The notes under the pieces were generated by a model. That model was not told the DNA's origin, ran no database searches, and worked only from the letters and a program-made list of their open reading frames with translations. DNA of 64,000 nt from positions 37,620-101,619 of IMG/VR virus record IMGVR_UViG_3300025122_000007; one strand, 5' to 3'. Below, in pieces: positions 44,442 to 47,205 of the stretch (positions within the stretch are counted from its first letter, which is position 1; each line of letters opens with the position of its first letter). The translations under genes were made by a program, and so were the position numbers. This DNA comes from a virus (taxonomy: Duplodnaviria; Heunggongvirae; Uroviricota; Caudoviricetes).

Positions 44442-44993
44442 TCAGACGACTACCCAGCCGCCACCAATCTGCTGCTCAAGGATGATTCCCTCCTTGAGCC
44501 GTGAGGTGAATGCCTCCTTCTCGTCTTTGCGTTCCTTGTCCCTCTCAACGGCTGCCTTCAGCCATTCGAGGAGCTCGACCTTTTCCAGCAGCAACGACAT
44601 TTGCCACTTCATGGCCTCCACATAAGGAGACATGATGAAGAGTTCGAGCATGGTGTCATAGGCGATGACATGGATCACGGTTGCGAACAAGGTCACGAAG
44701 GTGAAGTAGAGCCCAAGCCCTATAGAACCAACGTCAAAGGCCGCCAACGCAAGCGTGCCAAAGATTGCTACGCACCAGAACCATGACAGGGTGACTCCGA
44801 AGCCGGTCCAGAACGTTGGGCTGACAAGTGTCGCCAACGTAGCCCAACCGATCTTCTTCAGGGTGTTCCATCCTCCCCACTCCAAGGCGTTGTAACGCGC
44901 CATGCAGAGGTTGTACTTCGCACCCATCCAGTCATTCAACTTACGGATAGGCCAGGTCACCCCAGCCCACGCCTTGCGAAAGAAGTCTCGCAA
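44442..44993 (-). CDS. small membrane protein, paralog family member 1 (MRDFF...)
   Basis: Conserved N-terminus MRDFFRKAW..W and 3-4 transmembrane helices. Confidence 0.5.
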   Translation of the reverse strand: MRDFFRKAWAGVTWPIRKLNDWMGAKYNLCMARYNALEWGGWNTLKKIGWATLATLVSPTFWTGFGVTLSWFWCVAIFGTLALAAFDVGSIGLGLYFTFVTLFATVIHVIAYDTMLELFIMSPYVEAMKWQMSLLLEKVELLEWLKAAVERDKERKDEKEAFTSRLKEGIILEQQIGGGWVVV

Positions 44994-44997
44994 GGGT

Positions 44998-45375
44998 TTA
45001 CGCCAACAGGTGGTCGAACGCCATGCCGTGCACGATCAGCTCGGCGAGGATGAAGGCCGTCAGGAACAGACCCCAACCCCAGAAGCCAGCGCTGAACAGC
45101 ATGTAGGCCCACGTGGGCAGACCCATGAGGCTGATCAGGGTGACACCGAGGACGAACATGCCGCCGTACACCGGGCGGTCGAACAGAGCCGCACCGAAAC
45201 CGGCGAGGGCCTTGCGGATCGAGGACCACGAGGAGCTGAAGAAGCCGTTGCCGGTCTTCCACTCGAGGGCGTCGTACTTGGTGGCGCACCACCCCTGAGC
45301 ACAAGCCATCTGGCTGCCGAACCAACGAACGGGGGTGGCGATGAAGTTCCAGGTCGAATTAAGGAAGCTACGCAT
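44998..45375 (-). CDS. small membrane protein, paralog 2 (MRSFLNSTW...)
   Basis: Shares N-terminal pattern and ...YNALEW/YDALEW with paralog 1. Confidence 0.5.
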   Translation of the reverse strand: MRSFLNSTWNFIATPVRWFGSQMACAQGWCATKYDALEWKTGNGFFSSSWSSIRKALAGFGAALFDRPVYGGMFVLGVTLISLMGLPTWAYMLFSAGFWGWGLFLTAFILAELIVHGMAFDHLLA

Positions 45376-45459
45376 GGTAGTACTGTCTCCGAATCAGATT
45401 GAAAGTAATAACGAAAGAAAGCAGGGGAGCGGGATCTACAGTCCCGCTCCCCTTAGACA

Positions 45460-45906
45460 CTACGAGGAAACCGCGGTGGTATCCAAGATGGGAGAACCCT
45501 CCTCCACCACGACGTCGTTGTAGCCGAACGCCTCGAGAATGATGAGCCCCGCCGAAGCGATGGCACCAGCAAACACGAGCGTAAACGCCACGGTCATGGT
45601 GGGAAGCACGAACGGGAGAACCACAGCGGTCGTAGTGACCACCAGATCCACCCACTTACGGTGACTGACCACGAAACGAGCCGCAGGCGGCCAGTACGTG
45701 AGCAGCCAAGCTGCCGAGGCAACCAAGATCACGCCACCCAGGGTGGCAGTGGTCATGGCCATCGAGCCGAAGCTCAATCCCCAGACAGTGAGGGCAGCAG
45801 TGCCACCCAGCCACACCTTATCCCGAAGGGTAATGCGTAGCCAGAGGCCATGCGCCTTGTTCCAAAGGGATTCGATCCCTTCGAAACGGTTGAACAGAGC
45901 TTGCAC
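45460..45906 (-). CDS. small membrane protein
   Basis: Multiple transmembrane helices. Confidence 0.45.
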   Translation of the reverse strand: MQALFNRFEGIESLWNKAHGLWLRITLRDKVWLGGTAALTVWGLSFGSMAMTTATLGGVILVASAAWLLTYWPPAARFVVSHRKWVDLVVTTTAVVLPFVLPTMTVAFTLVFAGAIASAGLIILEAFGYNDVVVEEGSPILDTTAVSS

Positions 45907-45915
45907 TCTATCCTC

Positions 45916-46278
45916 CTAAGCTGTGACAGGCTCCTGAGAGCCAGTCGGGTTGACGCTCTTCTCCTCACGCTTGGCCTGAACCCAGCGGTAGGTGACGAGC
46001 GGGAGAGCGAACACGTAGCCCACCCCGAACATGACCCAGCCAACGACGCCCAGAATAACGTCGGAGAGCATGAGCGTGATCGAGTAGAGGGCCACGGTCG
46101 TACGGACCGGGAGGAACGAAATCGTCTCCGCCCAATTGACGGAGGTTCCGTCTTCTTTGTAACGGACCCAGCCACGATGTACGATCACCGAAGCGGTATT
46201 GTGCAACCTGAGGACCGGCCAGAGCAGGACATCTGTTGTCCAGGCCCAGCCAGTTTGGAGCCAATTGCGATCTGCCAT
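45916..46278 (-). CDS. small membrane protein (start at MADRNW)
   Basis: Transmembrane helices; track N-terminus trimmed. Confidence 0.4.
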   Translation of the reverse strand: MADRNWLQTGWAWTTDVLLWPVLRLHNTASVIVHRGWVRYKEDGTSVNWAETISFLPVRTTVALYSITLMLSDVILGVVGWVMFGVGYVFALPLVTYRWVQAKREEKSVNPTGSQEPVTA

Positions 46279-46345
46279 TGTCTTGTATCTCCTAGCACAG
46301 TTGACGAAATGGGGCCTTTTACCGACATGCCCCAGGTCCCGACGA

Positions 46346-46723
46346 CTAGGCTGCGGGAGCAACCTCGGGCTCAGGCGTCACAGTGACGCTGGGCTCGGAC
46401 TTGCGGTCTTCCCACCGCCCTTTCAGCCACGCGATGCCGCCGTCCGCCATCTCGAGGAGGAGGACAACACCGATGAAGGCTGCCAGCACGAATGCCGTAG
46501 CCAGGCCTGCGGTGAGCGCCACGCCGAGCGTGACGGTCTTGAGGACGAGACCCGTAGCCTTGACGGGTGCCCAGAGGGCGGTACGCCAGGTTTTGGGCCA
46601 CCAACCCTCGAGGGCAGTGCCCTCGCCGTCCTCGCAGACGATGAAGGGACGATCCCAACAGTAGTTGGTAAGACGGGCGAACTGCTGGAAAGGCCAGCTG
46701 ATGAAGGTCTTGAGCGTATCCAT
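46346..46723 (-). CDS. small membrane protein, paralog (MDTLKTFISWP...)
   Basis: Same N-terminal pattern family; transmembrane helices. Confidence 0.45.
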   Translation of the reverse strand: MDTLKTFISWPFQQFARLTNYCWDRPFIVCEDGEGTALEGWWPKTWRTALWAPVKATGLVLKTVTLGVALTAGLATAFVLAAFIGVVLLLEMADGGIAWLKGRWEDRKSEPSVTVTPEPEVAPAA

Positions 46724-46815
46724 GGATACACCCTCCTATGTCGAACGTCCTTGCTTAAGGGACAAGAAAGCAGAGCGGACACTTAATGACCTCCGCTCTA
46801 TAGGTCAGACAACGT

Positions 46816-47205
46816 TTACAGCGCCGGCGAAGCCTCGAACGTGGGCTCCGTGGTGTAGGTCGCCACGGTGTCCTTCACGAGGTCGATGACCTCACCGAAG
46901 GCACCCGAACCGTACATGAACGAAATGCCCGGCAGGACCTTGATGGAACCCAAGACGAAGGCACCCACCCAGAGGACAGCGGTGATGGCGGGGCTCAACA
47001 CCCAGCCGATGATGCGAACGGCGGCACGAGGCAGCGCCAGGGCGATGGACATACCCCAACGGGTCTCACCAGCGTCATCGAGCTGACGGAACGAGTCCTG
47101 ACCGAAGCCTCCGAACACGATACCGTAACCGTAGGCCACCTTGCGGAAGGCCCAGATCGTGCCGGCCTTGATATTCGTAACGCACGTATTAAAGAAATCA
47201 CGCAT
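46816..47205 (-). CDS. small membrane protein, paralog (MRDFFNTCV...)
   Basis: MRDFF N-terminus; transmembrane helices. Confidence 0.5.
   Translation of the reverse strand: MRDFFNTCVTNIKAGTIWAFRKVAYGYGIVFGGFGQDSFRQLDDAGETRWGMSIALALPRAAVRIIGWVLSPAITAVLWVGAFVLGSIKVLPGISFMYGSGAFGEVIDLVKDTVATYTTEPTFEASPAL

Follow-up and report, generated by a model that had tools for sequence, protein, structure and literature searches.

Imm and Sp of phage T4 are small helical proteins of the inner membrane that have little periplasmic exposure, are encoded by accessory, non-structural genes and function in superinfection exclusion. The class II holins (S21 type) have two membrane helices, both termini inside the cell (N-in/C-in) and charged C-terminal tails. 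In eukaryotes, proteins of the reticulon/REEP type and those of viral replication organelles shape membranes. Here we describe a cluster of six genes, A to F, for small proteins that are predicted to reside in the inner membrane. The cluster occupies positions 44442-47205 of a 64,000-nt stretch of DNA (the window), which corresponds to positions 37,620-101,619 of the IMG/VR record IMGVR_UViG_3300025122_000007 (Caudoviricetes). The carrier is an uncultured marine giant phage, of which the six are lineage-restricted accessory genes. They lie inside an island of about 28 kb that is rich in G+C and in which almost no protein has a family assignment. The structural and evolutionary description of the cluster given here is in our view very probably right. 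That the proteins are accessory factors of the inner membrane which, from the cytoplasmic side, help to take over the host or to exclude superinfecting phages is a suggestion from their sequences that we consider doubtful.

The cluster proteins resemble T4 Imm and Sp in being small, helical and predicted to span the inner membrane with little periplasmic exposure, and in being encoded in an accessory, non-structural region. However, there is no sequence relationship to the T4 proteins (PHROGs and Pfam are silent), and the proteins described here have long cytoplasmic N-terminal domains and come as a cluster of six genes. In T4-like phages, variable genes are accompanied by repeated PeSL cassettes, in which a stem-loop terminator is combined with an early promoter of the sigma-70 type (PMC2839356; PMC4122927). 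Genes A and B are each preceded by an element, here called the leader cassette, that resembles PeSL in being short, composite and intergenic, in containing a terminator-like stem-loop and in being repeated before orphan genes in a variable region. By analogy with PeSL, it could serve as a point of recombination or duplication. Unlike PeSL, the leader cassette has only two copies in the 64 kb of the window, the sequence examined, and both are private to the cluster; it has no detectable sigma-70-like promoter, and its loop is conserved and followed by an additional small hairpin with covariation. PeSL cassettes, moreover, belong to T4-like phages, among which the phage here need not be. Large marine phages are also known to have orphan-gene ('ORFanage') or hyperplastic regions (PMC4503421; PMC4122927). 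The block with the cluster is similar in being lineage-specific, in having genes without an assigned function and a deviant base composition, and in showing patchy variation between strains. It differs in that the block is kept in every contig recovered and its genes are under purifying selection. As a set of accessory genes in a phage, the cluster is ordinary, and the orphan family that it encodes is new but familiar in kind.

Several datasets from NCBI, JGI, ENA and Logan contain near-identical copies of the region (at least 99.6% identity), on metagenomic contigs that reach 195 kb in length. Since the contigs L001-L007 are this close to the window, they are useless for estimating the ratio of nonsynonymous to synonymous substitution rates (dN/dS), and a divergent lineage was used, represented by two short contigs from JGI sample 3300010883. 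One of these (L009) covers the gene upstream of A, A itself, B and part of C, and the other (L008) covers E, F and two downstream genes, with the gene order of the window. A scan of metagenome contigs with D gave no match, and no divergent ortholog of D or C-D junction was recovered. The estimates (Table 1) place A, B, C, E and F under purifying selection, E and F being the most constrained and A and C fast-evolving.

An initial annotation of the window had noted six consecutive small open reading frames (ORFs) here. They are indeed present, on the minus strand, and all six are real genes: their G+C content at third codon positions (GC3, 0.72-0.79) matches that of the neighbours, D has a strong Shine-Dalgarno site, and dN/dS is below 1 in the five genes with divergent orthologs. 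Plus-strand ORFs that overlap the cluster were rejected as genes, as GC3, dN/dS, the ribosome-binding sites and the orientation of the hairpins all favour the minus strand. With ~10 hydrophobic proteins among ~32 island genes, six membrane proteins in a row have a probability (P) of ~0.005.

The start codons vary among the genes. In C, an ATG preceded by the ribosome-binding site AGGAGA is the likelier start, and independent gene calling on related contigs arrives at the same length, 120 amino acids (aa); a 148-aa ORF that begins at TTG was rejected as too long. D starts at a GTG 5 nt past the Shine-Dalgarno site AGGAGG, which overlaps the stop codon of C. F starts at a TTG that follows the stop codon of E by 4 nt and has no Shine-Dalgarno site, and gene callers place the start later, so as to give proteins of 172 or 161 aa. 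However, the TTG and the residues MRDFFRK that it opens are kept in the divergent contig L008, in which the changes within the extension, two in number, are synonymous, and TTG is therefore the better start.

By Kyte-Doolittle analysis, B, C, E and F have two membrane helices each and D has four, within the range of two to four that the initial annotation had given for all the proteins; A falls partly outside it, with only one or two. The turns that join paired helices are of 0-4 residues and contain no Lys or Arg. These residues are confined to the N- and C-terminal segments, and in D also to the segment between the second and third transmembrane helices (TM2-TM3). The positive-inside rule is an established basis for predicting membrane orientation, and by this rule the location of Lys and Arg in the termini indicates that both ends of the six proteins are probably cytoplasmic, with almost nothing exposed in the periplasm. 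The predicted cytoplasmic N-terminal domains are 55-85 residues long. The C-terminal tails are charged in B, C and F, acidic in D and of only 5 residues in E. Trp makes up 3-6.6% of the six proteins, as against ~2% in the neighbours. The build they share consists of an N-terminal amphipathic helix of Trp/Phe and Arg/Lys, a spacer of 20-40 residues and a transmembrane hairpin, of which D has two. The 18-mer of highest amphipathicity lies at the extreme N-terminus (residues 1-8) of B, D, E and F and has a hydrophobic moment (muH) of 0.49-0.59.

E and F are paralogs, as judged from several comparisons of their sequences. BLASTP aligns them over the whole of E with 28% identity and an expectation value (E-value) of 1.2e-9, phmmer gives ~3e-5, and hhalign gives 95.8%. 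The invariant positions, M1, R2, F4, W9, P15, R17, C30, Y34, A36, L37, E38 and W39, are mostly in the non-hydrophobic N-terminal 50 residues. The YNALEW/YDALEW blocks (YxALEW) that the initial annotation had seen as an internal mark of the family hold for E and F, and are restricted to these and their orthologs; the other four proteins do not have them. All other pairs among A-F gave nothing significant by BLASTP and phmmer, and a hidden Markov model (HMM) of E and F fails to retrieve A-D.

Links beyond the E-F pair come from the N-termini and from profile comparison. The N-termini of A and F (MRDFF...G..W..RK, with Phe or Ile before the RK) align with a Smith-Waterman score of 40, a value that none of 2000 shuffles reaches and that tops the scores of all 107 control N-termini from the window (maximum 33). 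For hhalign, profiles were built by adding one divergent ortholog per gene and were 2-3 sequences deep. A and F align at residues 1-27 and 1-23, respectively (P 8e-4), and A and C align at residues 40-96 and 39-97, the membrane-adjacent segment (P 0.002); in both cases the positions match in the two proteins. When columns were permuted inside 15-column blocks, which preserves the hydropathy profile, A-F and A-C exceeded all 100 shuffles (z ~5.8 and ~4.8, respectively), and C-F was not significant. The similarity in E-F and A-F is mainly in the non-hydrophobic N-terminal 25-60 residues, and hence extends beyond hydrophobic composition; the outcome that the initial annotation had named as refuting a family is therefore not what is seen. 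An HMM of E, F, A and C has B as its top non-member match, with a marginal E-value of 0.022, and in the opposite direction an HMM of A, C and B ranks E and F, out of 373 ORFs, above all other non-members. None of the N-terminal tests supports B or D, and D shows no significant similarity to the other five proteins by BLASTP, phmmer, the N-terminal tests or hhalign. These results suggest that A and C are probably related to E/F and deeply diverged, and that B perhaps belongs to the same family; membership of D is not supported by any of the comparisons. The proposal of a tandem paralog family thus holds for E/F, is probable for A and C and perhaps extends to B, and it fails for D. Likewise, the N-terminal signature said to be common to at least four of the proteins is significant in A, E and F (MR[DSN]F[FL]), weaker in C, and not borne out in B, whose 'MDTL' had been included.

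The non-coding DNA of the cluster provides a different kind of evidence. The leader cassette (68 nt in the A copy) opens with a hairpin whose loop, GGTCRTTAAGTG, is conserved. The tract CTTTCT comes next, and then another small hairpin, which is GTCC-CTTAGGCAA-GGAC in the A copy and has the general form GYCC-CTTARGCAA-GGRY. Between the A and B copies, stem 1 has three compensatory double changes; stem 2 has one compensatory change, found in the divergent contig L009, where the cassette is better conserved than the flanking coding sequence. A covariance model run over the 64 kb finds only the A and B copies, at ~90 bits each, the next match being at 10 bits (E-value 0.8). The simplest account is that 'cassette plus gene' units were duplicated in tandem and that the structure was selected as RNA or DNA; both the duplicated cassette itself and the compensatory changes in its stems support the duplication. 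The cassette could also be a regulatory element of the cluster's own. Within 43.5-48.5 kb, Rfam gave only a chance microRNA-like match.

Other hairpins separate the genes further. One lies between B and C and keeps its pairing in the divergent lineage, a terminator-like one lies between D and E, and a third directly follows the stop codon of F (Table 1). The D-E hairpin, upstream of E, is also the third-best match of the cassette model, at a non-significant score. Given the hairpins after B, D and F, together with the cassettes, the cluster can be divided into four units, A / B / C-D / E-F. Inside the last two, the genes are tightly spaced (9 nt in C-D and 4 nt in E-F), which suggests coupled translation, so that the two members of each pair are probably made in linked amounts; they may also form hetero-oligomers. 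A short motif, GACCT(A/G), directly adjoins the 5' side of the hairpin after each of four genes, namely the upstream gene, A, B and F (47285-47293, 46800-46808, 46335-46340 and 44429-44441, respectively) and may belong to a conserved terminator or processing signal.

Table 1. Genes, leader cassettes and hairpins of the cluster, with two neighbouring genes; positions are those of the window, and identities and dN/dS are relative to the divergent lineage (contig in brackets)
Feature	Position	Strand	Description	Amino-acid identity	dN/dS
Gene A	46816-47205	minus	129 aa; MRDFFN... helix at the N-terminus, then a strong membrane helix and a weak hydrophobic one	57% (L009)	0.58
Gene B	46346-46723	minus	125 aa; hydrophobic hairpin of 33 residues between an amphipathic N-terminus and a charged C-terminal tail	77% (L009, ortholog P0016)	0.27
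Gene C	45916-46278	minus	120 aa; hairpin membrane protein	53% (L009, partial)	0.53
Gene D	45460-45906	minus	148 aa; four predicted membrane helices (two hairpins)		
Gene E	44998-45375	minus	125 aa; paralog of F		0.24 (L008, P0010)
Gene F	44442-44993	minus	183 aa; E-like core and a 70-residue charged, predicted helical C-terminal tail		0.19 (L008)
Leader cassette, A copy	47226..47293	minus	68 nt, upstream of A		
Leader cassette, B copy	46742..46807	minus	upstream of B		
Hairpin between B and C	46310..46334	minus	stem TGGGGC/GCCCCA in the window, TGGGCA/TGCCCA in L009; pairing kept		
Terminator-like hairpin between D and E	45423..45453	minus	12 pairs and GCTTTCTTTC; fold z-score -3.4		
Hairpin directly past the stop codon of F	44404..44434	minus	-21.7 kcal/mol, z -3.4		
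241-aa neighbour	47314-48039		upstream of A	68%	about 1.0
284-aa neighbour				72%	0.30

Searches of the databases with the cluster proteins returned the proteins themselves, their orthologs or nothing. With F as query, a word-indexed search of 5.8 billion proteins recovered nothing beyond the 90% cluster of F itself, and a search with a mixed A-D profile returned only the orthologs of A-D. There was no match to F by tblastn against 50,697 phage records, no relative of F or A in pattern scans of IMG/VR, and nothing in the PDB for the E/F profile. The PADLOC models of anti-phage defence gave no match at E-values up to 1 to the six proteins or the two that flank them. The six proteins thus belong to no described family. 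The roles put forward in the initial annotation, namely superinfection exclusion, holin/antiholin variants and host-range or immunity functions, are guesses, as no sequence membership in a holin/antiholin, superinfection-exclusion or immunity family was detected.

How the proteins might act can be considered against these results. The cluster would owe its growth to 'cassette plus gene' units that were duplicated in tandem and then diverged strongly. During infection, the proteins would insert into the cytoplasmic membrane of the host and rest their N-terminal helix on its inner leaflet, and would there alter or block a function of the membrane in host takeover or in exclusion of the DNA of superinfecting phages, acting in the manner of T4 Imm and not as a lysis holin. 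Taken whole, a lineage-restricted cluster of small inner-membrane proteins for host takeover or superinfection exclusion is the best explanation, and we offer it tentatively, with somewhat less than even confidence. Several results weigh against it. Pfam, PHROGs and NCBIfam hold nothing credible for the six proteins, and when 1.84 billion representative proteins were searched exhaustively by HMMER, the E/F profile recovered only F and E. The links beyond E-F are short, low-scoring alignments from very shallow profiles, and the similarity of the N-terminal amphipathic helices could have arisen by convergence. No sigma-70-like promoter was detected in the cassettes, a consensus that may not be that of the host. 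An AlphaFold2 model of F, made from an alignment of 2 sequences, is all-helical but unreliable (predicted local distance difference test, pLDDT, 51), and matches to its fold would therefore be meaningless. Finally, because the scan covered only part of the small island ORFs, a divergent endolysin could have escaped notice.

The evolutionary part of this account has one alternative, which we consider not very likely: only E and F would be related, and A-D would be unrelated orphan membrane genes gathered in a variable region. The N-terminal signature would then be convergent, brought about by interfacial amphipathic helices or by AT-rich 5' codons. Since all six N-termini are amphipathic, some compositional similarity is to be expected, and the restriction of significant BLASTP and phmmer scores to E-F, the failure of the E+F HMM to reach A-D, the non-significance of C-F and the failure of B and D at the N-terminus are all in line with it. 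Convergence of this kind, however, does not sit well with A-F and A-C alignments that beat all hydropathy-preserving shuffles at matching positions, nor with an A-F score above that of every control N-terminus, and no other gene of the island begins with MR.F. The HMMs rank other cluster members first in both directions, and the non-coding cassette is duplicated before A and B and nowhere else in the window.

The functional part has more rivals. In a lysis-timing module, at least one of the six would be a holin that makes timed holes in the inner membrane and its paralogs would be antiholins or regulators, with E and F as a coupled holin-antiholin pair. Class II holins are likewise small, with two membrane helices and the N-in/C-in topology predicted here, and their charged tails are like those of B, C and F; paralogous pairs with coupled translation would suit such an arrangement. 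Yet no holin family model in Pfam, PHROGs or NCBIfam matches at E-values up to 1, N-terminal domains of the length found here are atypical of holins, the short tail of E and the acidic tail of D do not fit, and six genes in separate hairpin-bounded transcription units would be unusual for a lysis cassette. In addition, no lysozyme, amidase or other endolysin and no spanin was detected among the scanned proteins of the island, a set that covers its small ORFs in part, and the missing endolysin makes holins less likely. On balance we find a lysis role unlikely. It is quite improbable that the proteins shape membranes, with the hairpin as a wedge and the in-plane amphipathic helix bending or budding the inner membrane of the host to build a vesicle or compartment induced by the phage. 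A strongly amphipathic N-terminal helix, turns of 0-4 residues and several diversified copies would serve such a purpose, and the predicted long helical, charged tail of F could drive oligomerization. However, the likeness to membrane-bending proteins such as reticulons is loose and one of architecture, a hairpin with an amphipathic helix that is common to many small membrane proteins, there is no homology to any such family, and nothing indicates that the phage makes internal membranes. The more specific proposal, by the same analogy, of a new membrane-shaping family in which coupled C-D and E-F hetero-oligomers would remodel the host inner membrane into a phage vesicle or compartment is very improbable. 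Virion-associated proteins of ejection or membrane penetration, which would enter the host membrane at DNA delivery, could also have hydrophobic hairpins and a high content of Trp, and C has a very weak match to the hydrophobic segment of a PHROG tape measure. That match is not significant (E-value 0.46), no structural gene was detected near the cluster, and the surroundings are non-structural, unassigned and DNA-metabolism-like; we regard this possibility as extremely unlikely.

Host takeover or superinfection exclusion at the inner membrane thus stays the reading we prefer. Discovery of a function would put a name to a protein family whose relatives, among ~15 billion predicted proteins, are at present confined to one phage lineage, and would reveal how a giant marine phage acts at the inner membrane of its host. 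As it stands, the cluster is a well-delimited case of a common pattern, in which small orphan membrane proteins duplicate and diverge in an accessory region of a phage. Its main value is as a clean set of candidates to enter into screens of expression, toxicity and exclusion, with the start codons, the transcription units and a structured leader private to the cluster all defined.

By megablast of the region, the window has no near match in the 50,697 phage records. Genes of phage type in the window include those for a DNA ligase, a DprA-like protein and an AAA+ ATPase that is also found in giant phages. The island, at ~34-62 kb, has 55-60% G+C and a GC3 of up to 0.95, the first 34 kb of the window being at ~45%, and it is seen in every related contig recovered. 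The sharp shift in composition could mean that the island was acquired or that it is a different expression class. At 39491-41529, it carries DprA-like genes (PHROG 768) and, by Pfam marks on related contigs, NADAR and DUF4326 genes; the NADAR gene suggests nucleic-acid or ADP-ribose-related functions. An interval of 831 nt (42330-43160) has no called gene on related contigs and contains several hairpins and possible short Cys-rich ORFs. The 241-aa gene upstream of A encodes a Lys-rich protein of low complexity that has indels relative to the divergent lineage, and its C-terminal ~45 residues (...DKAAILATVFNTLVRKPAAA.CRFGFW.YDGTIGRLFSKK) are almost invariant.

The window also has 30 tRNA genes, all on the minus strand (positions 1227-27104) and covering most amino acids. 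One of them (6035-6108, minus strand) has the anticodon CTA; it is labelled Pyl by the tool and is amber-suppressor-like. TAG terminates 16 of the 62 window genes checked, which rules out a global recoding of this codon. At the C-D junction (45907-45918), the TAG stop of C is in frame with the GTG of D, 9 nt downstream. Such an arrangement has a one-in-three chance of coincidence and is notable only given the CTA-anticodon tRNA. Amber readthrough at this junction would possibly yield a fusion protein of ~272 aa with six membrane helices, which could be a further layer of the membrane-shaping proposal.

The near-identical contigs show 14 differences in a 4.2-kb region, of which 13 are within the six genes. 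In C, nine substitutions are clustered in codons 12-50 (46129-46244), of which seven are nonsynonymous, and this could be a recombination patch or a result of local positive selection. Mutagenesis of the kind caused by diversity-generating retroelements (DGRs) is unlikely here, since there are only two haplotypes and the changes are not adenine-specific. Elsewhere in the island, comparison with contigs that are 99.7% identical gives patches of single-nucleotide polymorphisms at 43940-43960, 49673-49703, 51892-51901, 52404-52453, 52807-52829 and 53374-53401, and an indel of ~271 bp distinguishes the window from related contigs at 52466-52738. Exact direct repeats of 28 nt (52542-52569 and 53369-53396) and 32 nt (47951-47982 and 49227-49258) are also present. 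One of the polymorphic patches coincides with a copy of a direct repeat, which hints at recombination between repeats in the genome.

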